Source: Candidatus Omnitrophota bacterium
GTDB taxonomy: Bacteria; Omnitrophota; Gorgyraeia; Gygaellales; Profunditerraquicolaceae
DNA: 64,000 bases
Reading direction: 5' to 3'
Assembly (NCBI GenBank): GCA_041650835.1
Contig: JBAZKL010000002.1
Span: 142,477 to 206,476, forward strand
Part shown: positions 4,907-57,410 of the stretch, piece after piece
Position numbering within the stretch: the first letter of the stretch is position 1
How the letters are laid out: each line of letters begins with the position of its first letter
The notes under the pieces: generated by a model
Told to the model about the DNA's origin: nothing
What the model saw: the letters and a program-made list of their open reading frames with translations, nothing else
Databases searched by the model: none
Position numbers and translations under genes: made by a program

Positions 4907-6996
4907 TCATCCTGTTTGTGGAAGCGTTAATGGTTATCTTGAGCTCGTGGCTCCTGGCGCGTGAATATTTCGGTTTGCGGCTTTTAAGCGAATCAGTTAT
5001 TGTCTGTTTTATGCTCGGATTTGCCCAGATCGTTCTGGTAGAGCTGGGATGCGGCATTACGGGAAAACTTTATGTATATACTGTTTTTACGTCGCATCTG
5101 GCGGTTTTTGCCTTCGTTGTAATGCTCTATTTGAAAAAGAAAAGAACAACATTGGAAAAACCTGATATCGAGCCATTTTTGAAAAGCAATCTGCTGCTGT
5201 ACGCTTTGAGCGCCTTCGCGGCGTTCTTCCTGGTTAAAATATCCGTTAATTTGCTTAATCCTCCGTTAAGCCCTGACAGCCTGCAATTCCATCTGGCATT
5301 TCCCGCCGCCTGGATCACTCAGGGGAATTTAAACAGCCCGTTCTTTGTTTTCGGCGCAAGCCCTATTGTGAACCCCGGGTCATTGGAAACAGGGTCTCTT
5401 TCTTATTACCCTATTAACGCGCAGTTGTTTTATACTTGGCTCATGCTGCCTCTTCGCAACGCTTTCCTGGCGGATATAGGTGAAGCTCCGTTCTATATTA
5501 TCGGCATAGTAACGATATACGCGATATTGAAGCGCTATGGCATTGATAAGACAAGGGCTTTGTTAACCGGTTTCCTCTGGGCGCTTATCCCTAATATCCT
5601 GAAACAGCTGCGTACCGGCTCATTGATAGACGTTATTTGCGCGGTTTTGCTTTTGATGGTTTTTTATACGCTATTGTTGCTTAAAAAAGAATTGAGCGTT
5701 AAGCATGCTTTGCTCTTCGGGACCGCCCTGGGGCTTTTTATCGGTACCAAGATCATTAATTTTGTCTGGCTTATCGCTTTTATCCCTTTTATGGCTTATG
5801 TTTTGTTCGCTGCCGTAGGCGAAAAAAAACTTGCGTTCGGCCGCGCAGCCGCTATCTCGGCGGCGGCAGCGGGTATGGTGATCATCCTTGGCGGGTACGT
5901 CTATATAAAGAACTTCATTTATACCGGAAATCCTTTGTTTCCCGTCTCCGTGAAGATAGCGGGGAAGGCCCTTTTTAAAGGCTTGCTTGATAACGCCGGA
6001 TATAAGGCCCAAATAGCCCGCGGCGACCAGATAAATATCATGAAAGTCATTTTCCGGGAAGGCTTGGGGCTGCAATTCTTATTATTGATCCTTCCCTGTA
6101 CTGTCGCGCCGCTTATTTTTTTACGGTACCTTAAAACGAGGCTTAAGCCGTTTACTGAATATATCCTTTTGTTCCTTACTCCGTTAATGATGATAGTTTT
6201 ATATTTGGTTTTTATAAATATATCCTGGGTGAGGTATATTTTCCCGTATTTGACGCTGGGATTAGTAGTCGCGGTCATATTCGTAACCGCTTTACCCGGC
6301 GGCCATGCGTATTTGACTTTTGTGTCGTTCGTAGCCATTACCGCGGCATTATTCGAATTAGGAAAAGGCTCTGAGCTGGTTGTGTCTGTCGCGCTGACCA
6401 TCGCGTTAACGGCCGTGTTTATTTTTTACAAAAAACAGATCATTGTATTTTATAAAACCAGGGTTTTCGGTACAGTTTTTTTTGCGGCTGCCGGTACGGG
6501 TGCGCTCATCTTGTTTTTTGGGAACGCCCAATACGACCGGAATGAATTTACCAGGTACCCGCAGACTTTCAGTAAAAAAGAGTCCTGGCAGATCGATACG
6601 GGGAGAAGCTGGAAATGGCTTAACGAGCATTCCGGTGAGGGTGCCGGTATCGCCTACGCCGGCCGTTCGGAGTTTTATCCGCTTTTCGGTGATCACTTGA
6701 AAAACAGGGTAAGCTACATTTCGGTCAATGATAAAGAGATTACCCCGTATAATGATCCTGACGGCTCCTGCCGGCAGAAAAAGGATTACGCGGCATGGCG
6801 CAGAAATCTTCTCTCAAAAAAGGTCGACTATCTGTATACGGTACTTCCCTGCCCTGAAAACAGGGAAGTTGAGGATGCCGGCGCATTTCCGATAGAGGAC
6901 CAGTGGGCTGCCGGCCATCCTGAAGGTTTTCAGCTGGTGTTCAGTAACTCTTTGACGAGGATATATAAAGTAATAATGAACGAACGGTTAAATTGA
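4903..6996 (+). CDS. Large polytopic membrane glycosyltransferase of GT-C fold (ArnT/PMT-like)
   Basis: 697 aa with at least 12 TM segments in the N-terminal 500 aa and a soluble C-terminal domain. It directly follows and overlaps a polyprenol-phosphate-sugar synthase gene, the arrangement seen for ArnC-ArnT and DPM-PMT pairs. Assignment rests on architecture and context. Confidence 0.45.
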   Translation: MIILFVEALMVILSSWLLAREYFGLRLLSESVIVCFMLGFAQIVLVELGCGITGKLYVYTVFTSHLAVFAFVVMLYLKKKRTTLEKPDIEPFLKSNLLLYALSAFAAFFLVKISVNLLNPPLSPDSLQFHLAFPAAWITQGNLNSPFFVFGASPIVNPGSLETGSLSYYPINAQLFYTWLMLPLRNAFLADIGEAPFYIIGIVTIYAILKRYGIDKTRALLTGFLWALIPNILKQLRTGSLIDVICAVLLLMVFYTLLLLKKELSVKHALLFGTALGLFIGTKIINFVWLIAFIPFMAYVLFAAVGEKKLAFGRAAAISAAAAGMVIILGGYVYIKNFIYTGNPLFPVSVKIAGKALFKGLLDNAGYKAQIARGDQINIMKVIFREGLGLQFLLLILPCTVAPLIFLRYLKTRLKPFTEYILLFLTPLMMIVLYLVFINISWVRYIFPYLTLGLVVAVIFVTALPGGHAYLTFVSFVAITAALFELGKGSELVVSVALTIALTAVFIFYKKQIIVFYKTRVFGTVFFAAAGTGALILFFGNAQYDRNEFTRYPQTFSKKESWQIDTGRSWKWLNEHSGEGAGIAYAGRSEFYPLFGDHLKNRVSYISVNDKEITPYNDPDGSCRQKKDYAAWRRNLLSKKVDYLYTVLPCPENREVEDAGAFPIEDQWAAGHPEGFQLVFSNSLTRIYKVIMNERLN

Positions 6997-11476: not shown

Positions 11477-11580
11477 AGTTTAAATAACAAAGGAAGGTTT
11501 AAGCCTAAAGATTAAATTATAAAATTCGTCCTTTAACCTTTTAATTTTCTTTGTTATTTAATCTTTATCCTTTAAACTTA
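11477..11580. repeat. Module-B intergenic palindromic element (copy 1 of 4). AT-rich imperfect inverted repeat.
   Basis: agtttaaataacaaaggaagg ... ctttgttatttaatctt...tttaaactt. The arms are reverse complements. It shares the core 'taaataacaaaggaa'...'ttaaatt(t)taaaatt'...'cctttgttattta' with copies at 13931, 56951 and 57227. Confidence 0.7.
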
Positions 11581-11584
11581 TTTT

Positions 11585-12670
11585 ATGATGGAAGCTAAAA
11601 AGATCGAAAAAATACTAGTCATCAATCCCTTCGGTATCGGGGATGTGCTTTTTACTACTCCGGTTGTCCGCGCACTCAGGGAGAATTTTCCTCAGGCGGT
11701 CATTGGATATTGGTGTAATGAACGCGTCAAAGAAGTTCTAAAGCACAACCAGAATATTAACATGATCTTTTCGCTTTCGCGCGGCGACCTGAAGCGCTTA
11801 TATAAAAAATCCAAGGTCCAGGCTGTTTTAAGGTTAATCCGGGTATTGACGGATATAAAGAGCCATTCTTTCGACGCCGTGATCGATTTTTCTTTAGATT
11901 ACCGTTACAGCTTTATGACCAGGATCTTAGGGATCAAAAAAAGGATCGGTTTTAATTATAAGAACCGGGGAAGGTTCTTAACGGATACGCTGCCTATTGA
12001 AACGTACAGCTCAAAGCATGTCGTGGATTTTTATTTGGATTTGCTGCGATTCTTGAATATTGAACCTCGAACAAAAGATTTAGACCTGAGCGTTTCCCCT
12101 GTTAATAACGTAAAGGGCAGGTATATCCTCAGCCGTCTTGGGATAAAGGAGAATGACACGGTCATCGGTATCGCCCCCGGAGCCGGGGCGAGTTGGGGTA
12201 AGGATGCGTCGTTTAAGCGCTGGCCTGCCATACGATTCACGCAATTAGCGGATAAGGTGGTCTCTGAACTCGGGGCTAAAGTCGTGATCCTGGGAGATGA
12301 GTCTGAACGGGACATCGCTGATTTTATCATGTATTCAATGAGGTATAAGGCCATTGACCTGGTAGGTAAGACAAATATCGAGGAGTTCATCGCGCTGATC
12401 AATAATGTCGATGTGCTTGTCGCTAATGACGGCGGGCCGCTCCACTGCGCGGTCGCCCTGGGCAAAAAAACAGTCGCGATATTCGGCCCGGTTGATGATG
12501 TCGTCTACGGCCCGTTCCCCAGGTCGGATAAACACATCGTTATTAAAAAAGACCTGCCGTGCAGGCCATGTTACCAAAAATTCAAACTCGGCGCCTGTGA
12601 GCGTGACAGGGCATGTATTAATATGATCTCAACTGAAGAAGTTTTTGAGGCGATAAGGAGGCTTGTGTGA
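11585..12670 (+). CDS. GT9 family heptosyltransferase-like glycosyltransferase (second paralog)
   Basis: ILVINPFGIGDVLFTTPV..., GIAPGAGASWGKD..KRWP, LVGKTN..EFIALINN.DVLVANDGGPLHCAVALGKKTVAIFGP. Confidence 0.7.
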   Translation: MMEAKKIEKILVINPFGIGDVLFTTPVVRALRENFPQAVIGYWCNERVKEVLKHNQNINMIFSLSRGDLKRLYKKSKVQAVLRLIRVLTDIKSHSFDAVIDFSLDYRYSFMTRILGIKKRIGFNYKNRGRFLTDTLPIETYSSKHVVDFYLDLLRFLNIEPRTKDLDLSVSPVNNVKGRYILSRLGIKENDTVIGIAPGAGASWGKDASFKRWPAIRFTQLADKVVSELGAKVVILGDESERDIADFIMYSMRYKAIDLVGKTNIEEFIALINNVDVLVANDGGPLHCAVALGKKTVAIFGPVDDVVYGPFPRSDKHIVIKKDLPCRPCYQKFKLGACERDRACINMISTEEVFEAIRRLV

Positions 12671-13794
12671 ATATCCCATTTTCAGATCTCGGCATTATCC
12701 ATAAAAAATTAAGAATACCTCTCAATAAAGCATTAGAACGCGTGATCGCGAGGGGAGACTTTATTCTCGGAGAAGATGTACGTTTGTTTGAACAGGAATT
12801 CGCATCCGTTTGCAACGCCCGTTACGGTATCGGCACAAGCTCCGGGACTGCCGCCTTATTCCTATCGCTGGTAAGTTTAGGGATTGGAGCGGGAGACGAG
12901 GTCATTGTGCCGGATTTTACCTTTATCGCTACCGCTTTTGCGGTAACCTATACGGGCGCGAAGCCGGTTTTTGCCGATATCGACGATGTTACCTACAATA
13001 TTGATGTTAAAAAGATCAAACATGCCCTTTCCCGAAAAACGAAAGCGATCATCCCCGTGCATTTATACGGGCAGCCTGCCGCGATGCGCCAGATCATGCA
13101 ATTAGCCGGAGAATATGATTTGAAGGTTATTGAGGACGCCGCTCAGGCGCACGGTGCGCTCTGCCAGGTTTCAGGAAAAAAGCTTTTGCCTGTCGGGTCG
13201 ATCGGCGATATCGGATGTTTTAGTTTTTATCCTTCTAAAAACCTCGGGGGATTTGGTGACGGGGGAATGATTGTTACCAATGATGAAGCCTTGTACCGTA
13301 AATTGCTCGTTTTACGGGATTGCGGAAGGATCTCAAAATACGAGCATGCGGTTGTCGGTTATAATTCGCGCTTAGACACGCTTCAAGCTGCGCTCTTGAG
13401 GGAAAAACTCAAATATCTTAACGCCTGGACCCGGTTACGCAAGGCAGCCGCGGAGCGCTATGACGCGATGTTAAAGGATGTGCCGGGAGTTATTATTCCC
13501 CGGGCAGTTGACCAGGCATCCCATGTGTATCACGTCTACGCGATACGGATCAAGAACAGGGATGCTGTAGTAAAGAAGCTCCAGGAGAAAGGTATCGGAG
13601 TGATCGTTCATTACCCGATCCCGCTGCATATGCAGAAAGTGTACGCGTCGTTGGGATACAAAAAAGGGGATTTCCCGGTGGCAGAACAGGTCTCCCGGGA
13701 GATCGTTTCTTTACCGCTGTATCCGTATATGAAACCCTCCCAGATCAAGTACGTTGTGCGCCAGATTCGGGCTGCGGTTGAAACAGCAGGTTAA
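12667..13794 (+). CDS. DegT/DnrJ/EryC1/StrS-family PLP-dependent sugar aminotransferase
   Basis: GTG start overlapping the upstream stop. Motifs GDEVIVPDFTFIATA, HLYGQPA and SFYPSKNLGGFGDGGMIVTND (PLP-lysine). Confidence 0.8.
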   Translation: MNIPFSDLGIIHKKLRIPLNKALERVIARGDFILGEDVRLFEQEFASVCNARYGIGTSSGTAALFLSLVSLGIGAGDEVIVPDFTFIATAFAVTYTGAKPVFADIDDVTYNIDVKKIKHALSRKTKAIIPVHLYGQPAAMRQIMQLAGEYDLKVIEDAAQAHGALCQVSGKKLLPVGSIGDIGCFSFYPSKNLGGFGDGGMIVTNDEALYRKLLVLRDCGRISKYEHAVVGYNSRLDTLQAALLREKLKYLNAWTRLRKAAAERYDAMLKDVPGVIIPRAVDQASHVYHVYAIRIKNRDAVVKKLQEKGIGVIVHYPIPLHMQKVYASLGYKKGDFPVAEQVSREIVSLPLYPYMKPSQIKYVVRQIRAAVETAG

Positions 13795-13930
13795 AGAAAA
13801 GTGATCGGTAAACAGGAAAGCCCGGGACGAGGTAATCCGAGGATACGGCGATCTGGGGACTGGGGCACCGGGGATCCGGCGAACTGATAGTTCGGGAAAA
13901 CGTTAAACTCGGGCTTAGGAATCATAAGTT

Positions 13931-14070
13931 AAGTTTAAAGTCTAAAGGATAAATAACAAAGGAAGATTAAAGGATTAAGGCTAAATTTTAAAATTACCTG
14001 CCTGCCGGCAGGCAGGAACCTTTAAACTTAAGTCTTCCTTTGATATTTAGACTTTAAACTTTAGACTTTT
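13931..14070. repeat. Module-B intergenic palindromic element (copy 2 of 4), with a central perfect 20-bp palindrome cctgcctgccggcaggcagg
   Basis: aagtttaaagtctaaaggataaataacaaaggaag...ctaaattttaaaatt...cttcctttgatatttagactttaaactttagac. It lies in a 334-bp gap between the DegT-type gene and a GT2 gene. Confidence 0.7.
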
Positions 14071-19358: not shown

Positions 19359-19386
19359 TTGCAAGCCTATTAAATTTTGATATAAT
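19359..19386 (+). promoter_or_regulatory. Sigma70-like promoter candidate upstream of the GalT-like gene
   Basis: TTGCAA at 19359-19364, 16-bp spacer, TATAAT at 19381-19386. Confidence 0.4.
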
Positions 19387-19456: not shown

Positions 19457-20485
19457 ATGCCTGAATTACGAAAAGATCCTGTTATCGGACGATGGGTGAT
19501 TATCGCCACTGAACGGGCACGCAAGCCCGACCAGTTTGCCGGCGCGCAAGTCGAAAACCGGGCGGAAAAACCTTGCCCTTTTTGTGAAGGTAAAGAATCG
19601 CAGACTTCCCCGGAAATTTACTCGGTCCGCCCAAAATTATCGGCTCCCAATACTCCGGGATGGGACTTGAGGGTTGTCCCCAGTGTTACGCCCTTCCTGC
19701 GCATTGAAGGCGATCTGGACCGCCGCGGCAAAGGCCTATACGATGTGATGAATGGCGTTGGCGCTCATGAGATCATCGTAGAGACCAACGCGCATATTGC
19801 CGGCATGGCTGACTTAAGCGTCGAACAGATCACTCAAGTGATCTCCTGTTATGTCGACAGGATCGTTGATCTGGAAAAAGATAAACGCTTTAAATACGCG
19901 CTGGTCTTTAAAAATTACGGATGGATCGCCGGAGGGGGGAGCGTAAAACATTCCCGTTCGCAGTTAATAGCTACGCCCGTCAATCCTAAACGCGTCAAGG
20001 AAGAACTCGTCGGCGCGCGGCATTACTATGAACTCCATGAGCGCTGCATTTTCTGCGATTTAATTAAACAGGAGCTTGATTCAAAAGAACGCCTTATTTT
20101 GGACGTTGACGGTTTTATCGCGATCACGCCGTTTGCCTCACGCTTTCCTTTCGAAGTGTGGATACTGCCTAAAAAGCATTCTTGCGATTTTGTGAATCTC
20201 GATATGCCCAGCCGCGGCAATCTGGCGCGGATCATGAAGGCGGTACTTTCAAAATTAAAAAAAGGATTAAATGACCCGGCATTTAACTACGTTTTACATA
20301 CCGCACCTTTTAAGCGGCAGAAGGGGGCGTATTGGAGAAGTATTGAGGATGATTATCACTGGCATATTGAAATTATGCCTTCATTAACTAAGGTTGCCGG
20401 CTTTGAATGGGGAACGGGTTTTTATATCTGTCCTATGCCGCCGGAAACCGCCGCAAAGTTTTTACGGGAAGTAAATGTCAGTTAG
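19457..20485 (+). CDS. GalT-family (galactose-1-phosphate uridylyltransferase / HIT-like) paralog with substituted active-site motif (H-S-R instead of H-P-H)
   Basis: Family blocks: DPVIGRWVIIATERARKP, CPFCEG (zinc CxxC), FKNYGWIAGG and the C-terminal FASRFPFEVWILPKKH. The nucleophile motif reads KHSRSQ where the family has HPHxQ. Confidence 0.7.
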   Translation: MPELRKDPVIGRWVIIATERARKPDQFAGAQVENRAEKPCPFCEGKESQTSPEIYSVRPKLSAPNTPGWDLRVVPSVTPFLRIEGDLDRRGKGLYDVMNGVGAHEIIVETNAHIAGMADLSVEQITQVISCYVDRIVDLEKDKRFKYALVFKNYGWIAGGGSVKHSRSQLIATPVNPKRVKEELVGARHYYELHERCIFCDLIKQELDSKERLILDVDGFIAITPFASRFPFEVWILPKKHSCDFVNLDMPSRGNLARIMKAVLSKLKKGLNDPAFNYVLHTAPFKRQKGAYWRSIEDDYHWHIEIMPSLTKVAGFEWGTGFYICPMPPETAAKFLREVNVS

Positions 20486-20894
20486 TATGCGTGAGCTGAC
20501 GCTAGATATTGTTAAAGTAGTTGCTCAAAATAGTGTGATAGTAACCCGCACCTCGTAAGCATGCGCAAAATTTCCTCATTTCCAAGAGGTGCGCAAAAAT
20601 TTCTTTTAAATTTTTGCGGTGCAACGTTGTGGGAAATGAGGAAATTTTATGCGCATACTCGGTGGGGTTTGCGGCAGAAAGCCGCATACCGGCGCAATAC
20701 CGCCGCAGTAAGCGGCGTACCCAGCCACACCAATTAGGCTGGGTGCTATCTGCGCCGGGTGACGCTGAATAAAGAATTAAGGTGCATGAAACAGGGAGTA
20801 ATGACCCGCACCTCGTAAACGCACGAGAAATTTCTTCGAAATTTCTTTCGTGCACTCGGTGGGGTTTCGCTGAATAAAGCTTTAAGGTGCTCAA
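20486..20894 (+). repeat. Family-C structured repeat array. It consists of about three tandem units, each with a hairpin and each ending in the boundary motif gct.aataaag.tttaaggtgc.
   Basis: Repeated 'ccgcacctcgtaa(g/a)c...' unit starts. Hairpins gcgcaaaatttcctcatttcc/ggaaatgaggaaattttatgcgc and cacgagaaatttcttc/gaaatttctttcgtg. An extra stem-loop cluster gcggcagaaagccgc, cggcgcaataccgccg, acccagcc(N11)ggctgggt. The boundary motif occurs 3 times, and the last copy supplies the AAGGTG RBS plus ATG of the downstream gene. Confidence 0.75.
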
Positions 20895-21914
20895 ATGTCA
20901 GAATTACGCAGAGATACGATAACAGGAAGATGGGTCATTGTTAATACCGACAGCCCCTCAAAACCATCCGATTATGAGCGGGAAGTCCAGGTTTTAAAAG
21001 GCGGCGTCTGCCCTTTTTGTTACGGAAACGAGTCTCAAACTCCTCCTGAGATCGTGGCTATAAGAGAGCCCAGTACTACGCCTAATTCTCCCGGCTGGCA
21101 GGTCCGTGTTGTTTCGAATAAATTCCCCGCCCTGCAAATAGAAGGTGATTTAGACCGCAGAGGATCAGGGATCTATGATATGTCTAACGGGATAGGCGCC
21201 CATGAAGTAGTTATTGAGACCCCGTATCATACCAAGGGGTTTTCCGATCTTTTAGAACTCGAAATAGAAAATGTTATTACGATGTGCATGCAGCGAACGC
21301 TCGATCTTTTAAAGGACAAGCGCTTTAAGTACATTATGATATTTAAGAATGTGGGTGCGGCCGCGGGCGCGTCAATGGAACATCCGCATACGCAGATCGT
21401 AGCGCTTCCTATGGTGCCCAAGAATGTGAAAGAAGAGATATTAGGCGCTCATAAATATTTTGAATACCGCGACCGGTGTTTGTATTGCGATATGCTGCGC
21501 CAGGAAGCACAGGATAAAGAGCGTATTGTGTCGGAAAACAAGCTTTTTATGGCGTTCTGCCCCTTTGTTTCGCGGTTTCCTTTTGAAATATGGATCGTTC
21601 CTAAAAGGCATAACAGTTTCTTTTGCCTGATGTCTTCAGACGAAAAAACGGCACTCGCGGCAATTATGAAAGATACCGTGGGAAAGCTCAAACATGTCTT
21701 CGGGGATCTAGCCTATAATTCTATTATACATTCCTCACCCTTGAATAGCGAGACCAGTATCGATAGTTATCATTGGCATATGGAATTCATGCCGAAATTG
21801 ACCCGCGTGGCGGGTTTCGAATGGGGGACAGGTTTTTATGTGGTACCGACGCCCCCTGAAGTTGCAGCGCAATATTTAAGAGAAGAAGAACCACAGCAAA
21901 CTAAAGTTGGTTAA
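20895..21914 (+). CDS. galT: Galactose-1-phosphate uridylyltransferase-family enzyme (intact His-Pro-His active site)
   Basis: DTITGRWVIVNTD...KP, CPFCYG, FKNVGAAAGASMEHPHTQIVALP (HPH nucleophile motif), FVSRFPFEIWIVPKRH. Confidence 0.75.
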   Translation: MSELRRDTITGRWVIVNTDSPSKPSDYEREVQVLKGGVCPFCYGNESQTPPEIVAIREPSTTPNSPGWQVRVVSNKFPALQIEGDLDRRGSGIYDMSNGIGAHEVVIETPYHTKGFSDLLELEIENVITMCMQRTLDLLKDKRFKYIMIFKNVGAAAGASMEHPHTQIVALPMVPKNVKEEILGAHKYFEYRDRCLYCDMLRQEAQDKERIVSENKLFMAFCPFVSRFPFEIWIVPKRHNSFFCLMSSDEKTALAAIMKDTVGKLKHVFGDLAYNSIIHSSPLNSETSIDSYHWHMEFMPKLTRVAGFEWGTGFYVVPTPPEVAAQYLREEEPQQTKVG

Positions 21915-23012: not shown

Positions 23013-23040
23013 GAGGCAGTTTACGAAAGATACTATAAAA

Positions 23041-23069
23041 AAGGCGGAGGAAGATCTCCGCCTTTTTTA
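23041..23069 (+). terminator. Rho-independent terminator after gap
   Basis: aaggcggag-gaagat-ctccgcctt followed by a T-run (tttttt). Confidence 0.6.
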
Positions 23070-23099
23070 TTTATTCAACCTGGAATTACAACTAAAAGA

Positions 23100-25370
23100 A
23101 TGAATATTGTTTTAGCAGGCACGATTATACTTATAGGTTTAAGCGGGATTGTCGCCCAGATAGTTTTATTGCGCGAGTTATTGACGGCTTTTTACGGCAA
23201 TGAACTTATTATAGGCGTAATTTTCGCGAATTGGATTTTATGGGAATCTCTGGGCGTGATCTTATGCGCGCCGCTTGCCTGCCGGATGAAAAACGCCTTT
23301 AATCTATGTTGCGCTTTTTTACTGGCTTTCGCTTGCGCGTTTCCCGCTTCTGTTTTCATCACGCGCATTTTTAAAACGCTCGCCGGTATCTCCGTCGGTG
23401 AAGCGACAGGGTTTTCTGCCGTATTTCTGGCGACGCTTGCGGTTAATTCAATTACGGGTTTTCTTCACGGCGGATTATTCAGCTGCGCTTTAAAATTAAA
23501 CGCCCAATACCGCTCTCACCCGTCATTGGGCATTGCGAATGTTTACGCGTTGGAAACGGTGGGGACCCTTCTCGGAGGCATACTCTTAAGCTTCTTTTTT
23601 TTAGGACACTGGAACTCTTTTCAAACAGCTCACCTGATCGCTTTTGCTCATCTGAGCGCTGTAGTTATCATATGCGTATATTTCAACCGGGGCCGTTGCC
23701 GGCGTTATCTATTGGGCCTCACCCTGGGGTTGGGAATGCTTTTCTTGTCTGTGCCTGCCGATTTTATTCATAAACGCTCGCTCCATATCCAGTGGAAGGG
23801 CGTCGAAGTCCAGGAGTATAAGAATTCAGTTTACGGGAATATCATGGTAACCAAACGCCTCGGGCAACAAACAGTTTTTTATAATGGGATCCCCGCAATA
23901 GTAACGCCGGTCCCCGATATCGTTTCTCTTGAAGAATTCGCGCATTTCCCGCTGCTCCTGCATGAACAGCCGAAGAATATTTTGGTAATTAACGCTGCGG
24001 CGGGAGGTTTTATCCGCGAGATACTCAAACACGGTCCTGAACGGCTCGATTACCTGGAACTGGACCCGCAAGTCATTGCGATGCTAAAAAAATACCCTAC
24101 GGCTCTCACCGCGGAGGAATTATCAAACCAGCGCGTGCGTATATTCCCTGTTGACGGAAGATTTTTTATACGCACAACCACTACGAAGTATGATATTGTT
24201 TTGATCGGCGTCTCAGGGCCGGGGGATTTAAGTTCCAACCGTTTTTTTACGCTTGAATTCTTTGATCTGCTTAAGAAAACCGTAAATCCGAAAGCTATAA
24301 TCGCTTTTCGTTTACCCGGTTCACAAACATATTTCAGTAAAGAGCTCCTTGATTTGAATTCCTGCATTTATCAAGGGCTCAGAAGCGTTTTTCCCTGCGT
24401 GCGTGTTATTCCCGGTGATTTAACGCTCTATTGCGCTTCAACCGATAATACAATCCTGAGTTTGAACGCAGGGGACCTCATGCGCCGCTTTGAGGAGCGT
24501 TTTATACGCAGTCCGGTGATTTCATTGCCGTACCTAGGTTATCGCTTTAATGAAGCGTCTGAAAGAGATCTTTTGATAGCCCTGCAAAATACGGCTGCCG
24601 GAGAAAACCGGGATATGTTTCCGGTCGCCTTATATTATATGCAATCATTCTGGAATAAACAATTCTCGCCCGGACTGGTGAGGTTTTTCAGTTTATTGAG
24701 AGTATTTAATATGCGTACGGCTGCGGCGGTCATATTCTTGGGGTTAGCTTCAGCTTTATTGATCTTTCGTAAAAAACCGAAGAGCCTTCATGATTTATCC
24801 ATTCTCTATAGTATCGCTACAACAGGCTTTGCCGGAATGCTTTTAAACCTTATCCTGATCTTTACGTTTCAGGTGTATTACGGATTTATCTATCAATGGA
24901 TAGGGATATTAGTGGCAGTTTTTATGGCTGGCGCGGCAATGGGGAGTTTTGTAATGACGCGGGAGAGTGAGAGCCTTGAGAGATCACTCGGTCTTATGCG
25001 TTTTTTTGAAGGGGCTGTCCTTATGTTTTCTTTATTACTGGCATTTATTTTAAAAGAAAATTTTATGAATAGAGGGACCGCATATATGAGTTTTTTAACG
25101 CTTTTCCTGGTTTCAGGAATACTTGTCGGCGCGGAATTTCCCCTCGCCTGCCGGCTATTCCTTAAATCCTCTGAGCAGGCAAGCATGGCTGGCAGCGTGC
25201 TTTATTTTGTCGATCTGGCCGGAGGGTGGGCAGCAGGCTTACTGGGAGGTATTTTCTTTCTGCCGATTTTAGGAGTGTTTAAGAGCTGTGTGCTTTTGGC
25301 ACTCTTGAAGTTAAGCAGCCTGGTACTGCTTTTTCTATCGCGAACAAAAAATAACTATTCTACCTCGTAA
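23100..25370 (+). CDS. Fused polytopic membrane protein with a central spermidine-synthase-like (aminopropyltransferase fold) domain
   Basis: N- and C-terminal multi-TM regions. The central soluble domain has SpeE-like blocks (ILVINAAAGGFIREILKH, YLELDPQVI, DIVLIGVSGPGD) but lacks the acidic residues of the canonical GGGDGG and D-S-S-D motifs. Confidence 0.55.
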   Translation: MNIVLAGTIILIGLSGIVAQIVLLRELLTAFYGNELIIGVIFANWILWESLGVILCAPLACRMKNAFNLCCAFLLAFACAFPASVFITRIFKTLAGISVGEATGFSAVFLATLAVNSITGFLHGGLFSCALKLNAQYRSHPSLGIANVYALETVGTLLGGILLSFFFLGHWNSFQTAHLIAFAHLSAVVIICVYFNRGRCRRYLLGLTLGLGMLFLSVPADFIHKRSLHIQWKGVEVQEYKNSVYGNIMVTKRLGQQTVFYNGIPAIVTPVPDIVSLEEFAHFPLLLHEQPKNILVINAAAGGFIREILKHGPERLDYLELDPQVIAMLKKYPTALTAEELSNQRVRIFPVDGRFFIRTTTTKYDIVLIGVSGPGDLSSNRFFTLEFFDLLKKTVNPKAIIAFRLPGSQTYFSKELLDLNSCIYQGLRSVFPCVRVIPGDLTLYCASTDNTILSLNAGDLMRRFEERFIRSPVISLPYLGYRFNEASERDLLIALQNTAAGENRDMFPVALYYMQSFWNKQFSPGLVRFFSLLRVFNMRTAAAVIFLGLASALLIFRKKPKSLHDLSILYSIATTGFAGMLLNLILIFTFQVYYGFIYQWIGILVAVFMAGAAMGSFVMTRESESLERSLGLMRFFEGAVLMFSLLLAFILKENFMNRGTAYMSFLTLFLVSGILVGAEFPLACRLFLKSSEQASMAGSVLYFVDLAGGWAAGLLGGIFFLPILGVFKSCVLLALLKLSSLVLLFLSRTKNNYSTS

Positions 25371-25628
25371 GCATACGCAAAACTTCGGGATGCTTCTTTT
25401 ATGCAAAAGTGCCTGCTCACCCTCCTGCGCACTTTAAATTTACTATTAAATGCTGACGGCGTGCTTCGGAGGACTGCGCTCAATAAAGCTTTGAGGTGGA
25501 ACTACTCCGACTCATAAGAAGCGTGCCCACCCAAACAGCTAAACACTTCGGAAATTCTTCCGCTTCGCTCCATAATTTCCTCGTAGCTGTTTGAGTTTCG
25601 CTAGATAAAGCTTTAAGGTGCTCAAAAG
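25360..25628 (+). repeat. Family-C structured repeat (two units), beginning over the stop codon of the upstream gene
   Basis: ctacctcgtaagcatacgcaaaa...(hairpins)...gcgctcaataaagctttgaggtgg, then a second unit ending gctagataaagctttaaggtgctcaaaag. Shares unit-start and unit-end motifs with 20486-20894. Confidence 0.7.
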
Positions 25629-25722: not shown

Positions 25723-26964
25723 ATGCAGCCGTATCCTGCGCTATCAGAAATCCAAGATTCTGAAAAAGATCCTTTTAAAGCATTTTTAAGCGACAGCCTG
25801 GAGAGTTGCTTAAAAACCGTTAATGCTCAATCAGGATCAATATTTTTGATCGATAAAAAGAACAAGGACAGGCTTTTTCTCGAAGTAGCCCGTAATAGAG
25901 AAGGCAAAATATTTGATAACGTAAAACTTCGCCTGGGTGAGCGTATAGTTGGTAAAGTCGCCCGGGACCGTAAGCCTCTTTTTATATCCGACCTTGACCG
26001 GGAGAAAGAATTTGAATCAATGCCCCGGTACCTGCATTACACCTCGAAATCACTCCTATCAGTTCCCCTGGAACACGCGCATGAGTTGATCGGCGTCGTT
26101 AATATTACCGATAAAATGAGCGGAGCGGCTTTTAGTCATACTGATTTTTCTAAGGTTTTAAGTATTGCGCGCGATCTAGGCGTTGCTACGGACATGCTTA
26201 AAGGATATTTGGAGCGCCTCAGGAAAGTGAATTTAAGCCTTTTGATGCAGCTTAATGATCTTAAAGGTGCCGTAGCGCGTGCAAATAAATACTGTACTCT
26301 GGGAAAGTTTTCGGGAGATATCCTGCATGCCATAAACGGCCCTCTCGACGGGATCATTCGCTACATTAACTTAGCGTACCACCAGTTAGAAAATGAGACT
26401 TCGGGAAAACGCTATTTAAAGAATGCTGCCGAAGGTTTGTCGAGGCTTACGAGAGTGGTAAATTCCATCGCAACCTTGAAACGGATGATCCCTGATGAAC
26501 CAACTACTGTTGATGTTACCCGGGAACTTAATAATTGCATCACTGCATTTAATAATGATTTTAAGCTAAGGCATATAAACTTTCAGGAATTCTTACTGCC
26601 CTGCGCATTACTGGTGCCGGATTTCGGGCTGAAACTCGTTTTTACCGGTATTATGCAGAATGCCGCCGAAGCGATGAAACAAGGGGGGATGGTAAATATT
26701 TATTCGCAAGTTCAAAGCGGATGCCTTGAGATCAGATTCACTGACTCCGGATGCGGCATCCCTGAAAGCCTGTTAAAAAAGGTCTTTGAGCCATTTTTTA
26801 CGACTAAAGCCGATGATGGCGCGTTGGGGATGGGTTTAACGGTCGCGCATGAAATAATACAAAAATATAAAGGTTCCATTTTCATTGAAAACATTCCCGC
26901 AGGAGGCACCTCTGTTACGGTATCGGTGCCCGTCGCGGCAAATTCTCTCCACGATAATGAGTAA
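25723..26964 (+). CDS. GAF-domain sensor histidine kinase (orphan; no response regulator adjacent)
   Basis: N-terminal GAF-like region. Candidate H-box near ILHAINGPLDGI. C-terminal HATPase_c blocks (N, G1 DSGCGIP, G2 GLGMGLTVAHEI). Confidence 0.6.
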   Translation: MQPYPALSEIQDSEKDPFKAFLSDSLESCLKTVNAQSGSIFLIDKKNKDRLFLEVARNREGKIFDNVKLRLGERIVGKVARDRKPLFISDLDREKEFESMPRYLHYTSKSLLSVPLEHAHELIGVVNITDKMSGAAFSHTDFSKVLSIARDLGVATDMLKGYLERLRKVNLSLLMQLNDLKGAVARANKYCTLGKFSGDILHAINGPLDGIIRYINLAYHQLENETSGKRYLKNAAEGLSRLTRVVNSIATLKRMIPDEPTTVDVTRELNNCITAFNNDFKLRHINFQEFLLPCALLVPDFGLKLVFTGIMQNAAEAMKQGGMVNIYSQVQSGCLEIRFTDSGCGIPESLLKKVFEPFFTTKADDGALGMGLTVAHEIIQKYKGSIFIENIPAGGTSVTVSVPVAANSLHDNE

Positions 26965-27109: not shown

Positions 27110-27262
27110 GGCGGTTGCCGTTTAAGTCATCCTACCCGAATAATGATAACACCCCGCGCTAATCGCACCCAGCCTCATTGGAATGGCTGGGTATGCCGCT
27201 TTTCTGCGGCAGTATTGCGCGGGGTGTGCTGCTTTCTGCAGCACCGATTACCATTAATATAT
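27110..27262 (-). repeat. Family-C structured element in inverted orientation
   Basis: The reverse complement of 27150-27250 aligns base-by-base with 20676-20770 (tgcNgcagaaagcNgc...gcgcaatac.gccgcag.aaagcggc.tacccagcc...ggctgggtgc). Differences fall as compensatory pairs in stems (gcggc/gccgc versus gctgc/gcagc). Confidence 0.7.
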
Positions 27263-27291
27263 TTGACAACCATTCCAATTTATTATATATT
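27263..27291 (+). promoter_or_regulatory. Sigma70-like promoter candidate upstream of pgk
   Basis: TTGACA at 27263-27268, about 17-bp spacer, TATATT at 27286-27291. It lies about 90 bp upstream of the pgk ATG. Confidence 0.35.
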
Positions 27292-43155: not shown

Positions 43156-43200
43156 AAGTCACAGGTCACAAGACACAAGTAGTCCATAGTCGATAGTCCA
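43156..43200. repeat. Module-A intergenic motif (gtcacaggtcacaagacaca...gtagtccatagtcgatagtcc), one of three copies
   Basis: Same motif pair as at 56818-56880 and 57094-57155 (aagtcacaag.cacagg...cacgtagtcgatagtctatagtcgatggtcc). Confidence 0.6.
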
Positions 43201-53584: not shown

Positions 53585-53830
53585 ATGGCAGAAAAAGTCG
53601 CAAAGGTCGGTATCAAAAGAGAAAAAGGCTACCTTTACTACGTCGATAAGCAGGGTGACGTTTCTTGCGCTAAAATGGCAAGAGGCAAAGAAAAGGGAGG
53701 AAAGCCTAAGAAAGTCTCGAAATGCGGTATCAAAAGAAAAGAAGGATACCTTTATTTCGTTGATAAGCAAGGCGATGTTTCTTGCGCCAAAATGAAAAGA
53801 GGCGGCAAGAAGAAATCAAAGAAGAAATAA
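53585..53830 (+). CDS. Small (81 aa) lysine-rich protein made of two tandem copies of a roughly 35-aa module
   Basis: MAEKVAKVGIKREKGYLYYVDKQGDVSCAKMARGKEKGGKPKKVSKCGIKRKEGYLYFVDKQGDVSCAKMKRGGKKKSKKK. Strong RBS GGGAGGTG 7 nt upstream of the ATG at 53585. The two modules are 80% identical. Confidence 0.5.
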   Translation: MAEKVAKVGIKREKGYLYYVDKQGDVSCAKMARGKEKGGKPKKVSKCGIKRKEGYLYFVDKQGDVSCAKMKRGGKKKSKKK

Positions 53831-56817: not shown

Positions 56818-57379
56818 AAGTCACAAGACACAGGGCGCATGACACACGTAGTCGATAGTCTATAGTCGATGGTCCATAGTTATAGGTTGTGGTTAAGGTT
56901 AAGATGTTAGTTTGGTTGTTAGGTCAAGGATTGGGTAATTGAACGTTAATGATAAAGTTTAAAGCTCAAATAACAAAGGAAATCCAAAGAATAAAGGTTA
57001 AATTTTAAAATTAAACCTTGAACCTTAAACCTTCCTTTGTTATTTATCCTTTAGACTTTAGATTTAACTTGTCATACCTAACTGCCAATAATTAAGTCAC
57101 AAGTCACAGGTCGCATGACACACGTAGTCGATAGTCTATAGTCGATGGTCCGTAGTTATAGGTTGTGGTTAAGGTTAAGATGTTAGTTTGGTTGTTAGGT
57201 CAAGGATTGGGTAATTGAACGTTAATGATAAAGTTTAAAGCTCAAATAACAAAGGAAATCCAAAGAATAAAGGTTAAATTTTAAAATTAAACCTTGAACC
57301 TTAAACCTTCCTTTGTTATTTATCCTTTAGACTTTAGATTTAACTTGTCATACCTAACTGCCAATAATTAAGTCACAAG
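56818..57379. repeat. Tandem direct duplication, 2 x 276 bp plus an 11-bp start of a third unit. Each unit carries one module-A and one module-B element.
   Basis: Units 56818-57093 and 57094-57369 are about 98% identical (e.g. aagtcacaagAcacagggcgc versus aagtcacaagTcacaggtcgc). A third unit restarts at 57370 (aagtcacaagt) and stops. Confidence 0.9.
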
Positions 57380-57410
57380 TATTAGTCAAAATTAACAATA
57401 CAATAATTAC

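Follow-up and report, generated by a model that had tools for sequence, protein, structure and literature searches.

A previously undescribed family of structured intergenic repeat modules in the galT1-galT2 spacer of a Candidatus Omnitrophota bacterium

We analyzed a 64,000-nucleotide stretch of contig JBAZKL010000002.1 from a Candidatus Omnitrophota bacterium, called the window below, in which a 409-nt gap separates two GalT-like genes (Pfam), galT1 (19457-20485) and galT2 (20895-21914). Three module types, termed M1, M2 and M3, compose this spacer. The modules belong to a family that is real and previously undescribed, and the array is neither a galT2-specific nor a riboswitch-like leader. 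Our preferred explanation, which we hold with moderate confidence, is that the spacer carries members of a lineage-specific interspersed mosaic-repeat family of a narrow Candidatus Omnitrophota clade, similar in kind to bacterial interspersed mosaic elements (BIMEs) and BOX elements. The modules would be co-transcribed with their neighbors, the hairpins punctuating the mRNA and M2 donating a Shine-Dalgarno sequence. Positions refer to the window, and related loci carry an L number where they have to be told apart.

Anatomy, folding and covariation of the modules

A first, sequence-only reading had described the spacer as a hairpin-rich repeat array, and rereading the sequence bore this out. 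The spacer contains direct repeats of 39, 30 and 29 nt as well as a perfect 17-nt inverted repeat, and a 451-nt region yields a minimum free energy of -178.8 kcal/mol compared with -128.6 +/- 6.0 kcal/mol for shuffled sequences (z = -8.35). From galT1 onwards, the modules are arranged in the order degenerate M2, M1a, M3, M2, linker, M1b, M2 and the ATG of galT2 (Table 1). The spacer is not an assembly artefact, since an identical spacer is present in one ENA assembly and its last 56 nt also occur in an independent Logan assembly.

M1 is a bipartite hairpin with 25 base pairs in all. It comprises a lower helix (ACCCgCACC paired with GGTGGGGT), a bulged base, a 2x2 internal loop, a GU/AC mini-helix, a 4-nt bulge (AARC), a 6-bp helix, a 2-nt bulge on the 3' side and an A/T-rich upper helix, and its flanks are invariant, with CACCTCGTAA(G/A)C on the 5' and ACTCGGTGG on the 3' side. 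The lower helix is formed by 20544-20552 and 20661-20668 in M1a and by 20804-20812 and 20858-20865 in M1b. In M1a, a 61-nt nested palindrome (~20578-20638) is inserted in the apical loop, an indel relative to the sister species L010 (GTDB metagenome-assembled genome JBAZTA01). Where three units starting with ccgcacctcgtaa had originally been reported, just two were found, starting with ACCCGCACCTCGTAA at 20544 and 20804; a truncated third M1 relative (ctACCTCGTAAGCATaCGCAAAA) lies at 25362-25382, in a separate spacer.

M3 is a cluster of two to four small G+C-rich hairpins. In the galT spacer, hairpin P0 (GCGGC-AGAAA-GCCGC, 20671-20685) precedes P1, which is formed by CCGGCGC (20689-20695) and GCGCCGG (20752-20758) and encloses P2 (20701-20717) and P3 (20720-20743, loop ACACCAATTA). 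P2 and P3 together constitute a 45-nt indel relative to L010. Both the M1 and the M3 hairpins fold autonomously in predictions.

M2 is about 27 nt long and reads (TTT/TGA)CGCTRRAYAAAGCTTTAAGGTGCTCAA. In predicted folds its mean unpaired probability is 0.4-0.64 compared with 0.20-0.26 for M1. The motif previously proposed to mark the unit boundaries has four matches within the window (20764, 20869, 25478 and 25600) compared with a chance expectation of 0.02. The spacer copies at 20764 and 20869 were thus confirmed, while the evidence for a degenerate copy at ~20497-20530 consists of the partial repeats D5 and D6, and this 31-nt segment has no counterpart in L010. As had been claimed, the last boundary motif supplies the Shine-Dalgarno sequence of galT2: AAGGTG at 20884-20889 lies inside it, 5 nt before the ATG (20895).

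M1 and M3 are represented by covariance models (R1 and R2, respectively). In about 117 kb of searched DNA, R1 found 13 M1 copies in 9 loci, with sense matches scoring 69-95 bits and antisense matches 12-27 bits. The alignment of these copies has paired bases in 98.8% of its cells and two-sided changes in 14 of its 25 pairs; none of 500 shuffles performed as well, and sliding the partners abolished the signal. Covariation is seen in the 6-bp and upper helices, and the lower helix with its loops is invariant in sequence. For the M3 core, with 7 copies, pairing is 100% and three pairs are compensatory, and P0 occurs as GCGGC/GCCGC, GCCGC/GCGGC, GACGC/GCGTC and, in an antisense copy, GCTGC/GCAGC. 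The proposal of a family of structured modules is therefore upheld for M1 and M3 alike.

Table 1. Modules of the galT1-galT2 spacer and further family members in the window
Feature	Position	Strand	Basis	Identity to L010
galT1-galT2 spacer array	20486-20894	+	sequence reread	
5' junction: degenerate M2-like segment (~20497-20530) and weakly conserved linker	20487-20540	+	begins 1 nt past galT1 stop; D5/D6 partial repeats	31-nt segment missing in L010; remainder 58%
M1a, long bipartite hairpin	20543-20672	+	R1 81 bits; fold -58.9 kcal/mol, z = -6.8	90%
M3 hairpin cluster	20669-20764	+	R2 63 bits; fold -55.9 kcal/mol, z = -6.7	93%
M2 (beta), TGACGCTGAATAAAGAATTAAGGTGCATG, weakly structured, A/U-rich, with AGGTG	20760-20788	+	nhmmer E = 6.5e-6	85%
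Linker between M2 and M1b, poorly conserved	20789-20802	+		64%
M1b, short bipartite hairpin	20803-20869	+	R1 84.7 bits; fold -27.2 kcal/mol, z = -3.9	97% (63/65)
M2 (gamma), TTTCGCTGAATAAAGCTTTAAGGTGCTCAA, carries galT2 Shine-Dalgarno AAGGTG	20865-20894	+	nhmmer E = 1.5e-9	92%
Second array, between 756-aa gene and histidine kinase gene	25362-25625	+	repeats, motif matches, nhmmer	
Second full M3 (P0 GCTGC/GCAGC, P1 CCCGCGC/GCGCGGG, P2, P3)	27146-27244	-	fold -58.5 kcal/mol, z = -7.7	

Conservation, dispersal and proposed role

A GalT2 protein identical to that of the window is annotated from a Candidatus Omnitrophota metagenome-assembled genome. In three related genomes, whose GalT2 proteins are 73-78% identical to that of the window, the gene order priA-fmt-galT1-galT2-gap-(spermidine-synthase-like) is kept. 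The array represents a lineage-specific gain, since the galT1-galT2 spacers of these relatives measure just 13, 17 and 27 nt. In L010, with about 85% DNA identity over galT and gap, an orthologous array of 271 nt is present (M1a', a short M3, M2, M1b, M2 and ATG), and it takes the place of the native spacer as far as the ATG. Three clean indels distinguish it from the window array: the degenerate M2 (31 nt), the palindrome in the M1a apical loop (61 nt) and P2 with P3 in the P1 loop (45 nt). L010 further carries an M3 variant and an M2 adjoining the ATG of the gene after next, a place without modules in the window.

Only 54% of the four-fold degenerate sites in galT1 and 49% of those in galT2 are identical between the window and L010 (138/267 combined, ca. 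52%). The array layout must predate the split of the two species, given that the modules are 85-97% identical at this level of neutral divergence; linkers and 5' junction reach 58-64%. This near-constancy of the modules in place argues for either function or continuous homogenization.

Family modules are not confined to this operon. A metagenome scan with two M1 anchors matched 8 contigs, on which M1 and M2 co-occur with differing flanking genes, and modules precede unrelated genes at no fewer than 10 intergenic sites besides this one. Arrays of the type M2-M1-M2, frequently accompanied by M3 and extra hairpin modules, lie between or before genes that are unrelated to each other: between response regulator and redoxin-PCD genes, sugar transferase and Wza-like exporter genes, GNAT and acyl-CoA dehydrogenase genes, a nitroreductase and an unknown gene, a 756-aa and a histidine kinase gene, between a promoter and a gene for a CBS protein, and upstream of DnaK. 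The arrays begin right past the upstream stop codon and extend to the start codon or to a GGAGG that immediately follows M2; this last combination (CTCAAGGAGG) recurs in three loci unrelated to one another. The L020 array makes up the entire 5' untranslated region, since it begins some 10 nt past an extended -10 box. Several contigs terminate inside arrays, as is typical for multi-copy sequence.

The arrays follow a fixed grammar of hairpin module, M2, linker and next hairpin module, with varying module number and nested additions. All M1, M2 and M3 copies of any one array share the same strand, and at 10 of 11 distinct loci the arrays are sense to the flanking genes (one-sided binomial p ~0.006). 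A near-identical M1 subtype (II) is present at non-orthologous loci. No M1 matches were obtained in a scan of viral contigs. In a scan of a whole-genome collection the pattern TRACCCGCACCTCGTAARC gave one real match (L010) and seven chance matches; its two flanking bases were too strict, most copies reading TTACCC or ATACCC. Likewise, a P1-like match at L020 5272-5282 was discarded as a chance match lacking a hairpin.

We propose that the family invaded a galT1-galT2 intercistronic spacer that would ancestrally have been very short (13-27 nt), and that a galT1-galT2-gap mRNA includes the array. galT1 has a promoter-like site upstream (19359-19386), and downstream of gap lies a strong bidirectional terminator (23035-23070). 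A terminator and promoter scan of 20486-20894 returned no M1- or M3-based terminator and no strong promoter-like site, the only terminator hit being a chance 5-bp stem at 20812-20827. It is from this arrangement that we infer co-transcription. M1 itself was rejected as an intrinsic terminator because only UUU(C/G), and no U-tract, follows it. Within the mRNA, the stable hairpins may act as intercistronic or 5'-untranslated-region punctuation, being exonuclease barriers and/or processing sites for double-strand-specific RNases, and they would uncouple the two cistrons. M2, a comparatively open A/U-rich stretch ending in AGGUG, would then serve as an independent ribosome landing site and as Shine-Dalgarno sequence for galT2. 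Since about 400 nt inserted into a 13-27-nt spacer would abolish translational coupling, galT2 would need the Shine-Dalgarno sequence of M2. Nested palindromes can extend the M1 tip.

Known repeat classes and competing explanations

Co-transcribed repeats are known to attenuate or stabilize transcripts or to be cleaved, as described for BIMEs, ERIC with RNase E, Correia elements with RNase III, and BOX elements (PMC3049150). Repetitive extragenic palindromes (REPs) and BIMEs resemble the present family in being dispersed, extragenic yet transcribed mosaics of palindromes and short conserved linkers (PMC2817692, PMC3733652). They are likewise lineage-specific and located between co-directional genes of operons, and their stable hairpins are known to affect mRNA stability or attenuation. 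However, successive BIME palindromes alternate in orientation (PMC2817692) whereas the family modules are all direct, and the GTAG or CGTC tag at the palindrome foot (PMC3733652) is missing, with no GTAG/CTAC or CGTC/GACG at the stem feet of M1, P0 or P1. In size, the G+C-rich hairpins P0 (15 nt) and P1 (~25-45 nt) fit the 20-40-bp G+C-rich palindrome of a REP unit while M1, a two-part hairpin of 67-130 nt with an A/T-rich upper helix, does not; a further difference is the unstructured module with its Shine-Dalgarno sequence. REPs and BIMEs are also marked by more than 100 copies per genome and an associated Y1 transposase (RAYT). The 13 M1 copies found here come from about 117 kb of DNA, and no transposase domain appeared in 18 window open reading frames (ORFs; ten small ORFs and eight neighboring genes). 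To our knowledge, no RAYT transposase is known for the family.

The BOX elements of Streptococcus are composites (boxA-boxBn-boxC) that are strongly base-paired when transcribed and co-transcribed with their neighbors, with no function proven for the family (PMC3049150). Composite modules, fixed order, variable number and extensive pairing are features they have in common with the present arrays, which is a likeness of architecture and not homology, and large copies likewise create spurious ORFs on both strands. Apart from phylum and apparently unrelated sequence, BOX elements differ in possessing insertion-sequence-like terminal inverted repeats, none of which were found in the family, and in not being known to supply a downstream ribosome-binding site. 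The family modules, for their part, show much higher conservation across species than neutral sites do. We know of no evident similarity between the BOX consensus sequences and the family.

The early mRNA of phage T7 contains intercistronic RNase III sites. Such sites, like the Correia (nemis) elements of Neisseria, are long hairpins with internal loops inside polycistronic transcripts, and their cleavage by RNase III changes the fate of the flanking cistrons; M1 is similar by predicted geometry, with 8 + 2 + 6 + 8-9 bp and conserved internal loops adding up to a predicted coaxial helix of ~25 bp. Correia elements also donate expression signals to their neighbors and are cleaved by RNase III (PMC3049150). 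In contrast to the family, they are MITEs (miniature inverted-repeat transposable elements) with 26-bp terminal inverted repeats, TA duplications and both orientations, and there is no sequence similarity. Compared with BIME, BOX and Correia elements overall, the family stands apart by its uniform direct orientation, the A/T-topped two-part hairpin, growth by nested hairpins and a Shine-Dalgarno module adjoining start codons.

Further classes were considered and rejected. Integron attC sites do not match because the M1 ends, (A/T)ACCC...GGGGTTT(C/G)(G/C), deviate from the RYYYAAC/GTTRRRY consensus and the helix extends inward, not outward, from AAC/GTT; the neighbors are housekeeping genes whose order is conserved. 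In case of a CRISPR array, the segments between M2 copies (M1 and M3) are themselves conserved family members elsewhere, the M2 copies differ and no cas genes are nearby. The spacer is not a remnant of the galT duplication either, as neither paralogue has a coding sequence similar to it. A likeness to boxB/boxA antitermination signals (the 5-bp P0 stem with AGAAA loop, plus ..GCUUUAA.. in M2) extends over only ~7 nt, and arrays also occur outside operon leaders. Neither the window nor 8 related loci contained an Rfam match at gathering score, and searches at E <= 10 gave only noise. That the first reading did not recognize the array as a described riboswitch, REP or CRISPR repeat agrees with these results.

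Among the competing explanations, a selfish non-autonomous DNA element deserves the most serious consideration, although we regard it as possible and not as probable. Such an element, of the MITE, REP/REPIN or IS200/IS605-derived kind, would form single-stranded DNA hairpins recognized by a transposase encoded elsewhere, and all effects at the RNA level, including the Shine-Dalgarno sequence, would be by-products filtered by selection. Presence/absence and module-sized indels at orthologous sites, palindromes nested within loops, the recognition-site-like sequence invariance of the M1 base, the near-identity of M1 subtype II across non-orthologous loci and the breaking of contigs within arrays are all compatible with this explanation, and the orientation of the arrays may just track the replication strand. 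The expected marks of transposition are nevertheless missing. Only the M1 lower helix (9/8 nt, bulged) comes into question as a terminal inverted repeat, and no duplicated flank, target-site duplication or constant target was found at module or array borders. A mobile repeat with transposon ends had been named as the finding that would overturn an RNA interpretation; a dispersed repeat is indeed present, but transposon ends and target-site duplications were not found. An interpretation of M2 as a long target duplication was tested by comparing similarity within arrays (0.795) and between arrays (0.749), which is suggestive only (permutation p = 0.07). The absence of GTAG/CGTC tags, of alternating orientation and of a transposase among the scanned ORFs also speaks against a selfish element, as does the fact that arrays always end exactly at a Shine-Dalgarno sequence or ATG. 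Finally, the layout is common to two species that are ~50% diverged at neutral sites, and the preservation of the modules while the linkers decayed points to long-term constraint in place.

The sequence-only reading had considered a regulated leader; a dedicated cis-regulatory leader of galT2 (riboswitch, RNA thermometer or attenuator) is very improbable. Here, GCACCU in the M1 5' strand would alternate between its own 3' strand and AGGUGC of M2 and thereby gate translation. GCACCUCGUAAGC (M1 5') is in fact complementary to GCUUUAAGGUGC (M2), the predicted L021 fold swaps the M1 lower helix for M1 5'-M2 pairing and one array precedes dnaK. Yet relatives possess the same operon with 13-27-nt spacers and no array, the same modules precede functionally unrelated genes, Rfam gave no match, and in the fold of the window M1 is closed on itself with the Shine-Dalgarno sequence free. 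Covariation between M2 and the M1 5' strand lends no support to a switch: both are near-invariant, and the sole variable position, the G/A variant of M1 (GUAAGC/GUAAAC), has no matching change in neighboring M2 copies. Discrete trans-acting small RNAs, produced from M1 and M3 as genes or as stable processed fragments, are also quite unlikely. Such RNAs would be in line with the very stable, conserved and covarying hairpins, with conserved loop motifs (CCRAUUA-like) recurring in P1, P3 and related hairpins and with one M3 copy lying antisense between genes. However, individual modules have no flanking promoter-like site or terminator, they are packed end to end between coding genes and no target complementarity was identified. 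The probability of a protein-coding spacer is close to negligible. A 130-aa minus-strand ORF and short plus-strand ORFs ending in ...TRTS and a stop codon (20475-20558; 10 codons at 20787-20819) do exist, two of them ending at a TAA inside M1, but no Pfam match was obtained, and in L010 the 31- and 61-nt indels together with stop codons break every ORF, the minus-strand frame being split into pieces of 20-42 aa and the short ORF being reduced to ATG AAT TAG. By sequence comparison, the coding interpretation is refuted by this missing conservation, in keeping with the original view that the region is non-coding.

Several points nevertheless weigh against a co-transcribed mosaic-repeat family acting as mRNA punctuation. 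Transcription and any processing of the arrays are deduced from sequence. Sense orientation is no proof of an RNA role, because a single-stranded DNA element with a replication-strand preference would look alike; nearly all window genes are encoded by the plus strand, and each of the eight 8-kb bins has a positive GC skew, so that gene orientation and replication direction are inseparable here. The second full M3 (27146-27244) is antisense to the genes on both sides of it and lies shortly upstream of a strong promoter-like site (27263-27291) for pgk; it shares 87.5% identity over 56 nt with 20692-20746 and shows compensatory differences in P0 and P1. Wobble pairs, considered as an indicator of the folded strand, were uninformative (4 U.G compared with 2 A.C). 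M2 is only moderately unpaired in predictions and in some arrays pairs with the M1 5' strand instead. Finally, cross-species identity is very high, also in the upper helix of M1b, which covaries freely, and exceeds what pure structural constraint predicts.

A more far-reaching and speculative possibility, to which we assign a low probability, is that M1, M2 and M3, instead of being passive repeats, are cis elements of a clade-wide system of post-transcriptional operon punctuation. A dedicated RNA-binding protein or RNase would dock or cleave at the invariant M1 base, and M2 would be a portable ribosome landing pad. The arrays would then be mobile cassettes of ribosome-binding site and insulator which make translationally coupled gene pairs independently translated, and they may spread strand-specifically via an RNA or single-stranded DNA intermediate.

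Other repeats in the window and significance

The second array of the window contains the M1 5' fragment (25362-25382), an M2 (25475-25500) within a stem-loop, a hairpin module (~25537-25594) and another M2 (25596-25625); the orthologous spacer in L025 has other module content. The hairpin module AGCTAARCACTTCGGAAATTCTTCCGCTTCGCTYCATAATTTCCTCGTAGCT is common to the arrays at 25537-25594 and at L023 ~5140-5200. The 3' end of the 756-aa spermidine-synthase-like coding sequence appears to have been remodeled by the repeat, because its stop codon (TAA, 25368-25370) falls inside the M1-like fragment (ACCTCGTAAGCATACGCAAAA, 25353-25382). The following GAF histidine-kinase gene (25723-26964) is bracketed by family arrays in the window and present in L025. 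It is absent at that position in L003 and L010, where pgk directly follows a 755/770-aa gene. Directly upstream of pgk, L003 carries three tandem 49-nt units (12545-12705), each with a hairpin CACCGGCG...CGCCGGTG, which in minus-strand reading resembles P1 of M3 (ACCGGCGTAAT) and is antisense to the genes, as is the window M3 upstream of pgk.

Paired palindromes AAGACC(C/G)GGTCTT, about 37 nt apart, were observed at L019 69-118, 3979-4028 and 6762-6811, which are three intergenic sites on one 9-kb contig, and at L024 3666-3716; this module sometimes lies within family arrays. At L019 7223-7274 (minus strand), a short M3 overlaps the final codons of a 644-aa gene, and is followed by a palindrome and a terminator-like hairpin. 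A separate repeat family of long, A/T-rich imperfect palindromes (AAAGTTTAAATAACAAAGGAA...TTCCTTTGTTATTTA) occupies intergenic positions 11481-11580, 13926-14068, 56953-57070 and 57229-57346, one of the four copies ending exactly at a start codon. Short-period, word-like repeats (GTCACAAGACACAGG..., AGTCGATAGTCTATAGTCGATGGTCCATAG...) are found at 43156-43200, 56818-56940 and 57094-57216. The spacer before an 834-aa gene contains a 287-nt tandem duplication with 99% identity (56818-57104 / 57094-57380), and the one before a 944-aa gene a pair of 79-nt direct repeats with 85% identity (53608-53686 / 53725-53803). One relative only (L006 and L007, 5441-5815) has a gene for a 124-aa four-helix-bundle protein of the 23S_rRNA_IVP family between priA and fmt. 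No tRNA gene is present in the 64-kb window.

In conclusion, we characterized a mosaic-repeat family from Omnitrophota, an uncultured and poorly understood phylum for which our literature search found no description of intergenic repeats or structured RNAs. For genome annotation, the family calls for caution since it yields a spurious 130-aa ORF and breaks metagenome contigs. It also offers a natural case in which a repeat takes up the whole space between two cistrons and an essential-pathway gene has its native ribosome-binding site replaced by that repeat. The features of the family are clear and testable, and covariance models of it are now possible. Should the arrays act at the DNA level, the family would point to a mobilizing enzyme that awaits identification. 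If they act at the RNA level, the modules would be natural counterparts of the insulators of synthetic biology that combine a hairpin with a standard ribosome-binding site, and would constitute a lineage-wide layer of operon regulation.

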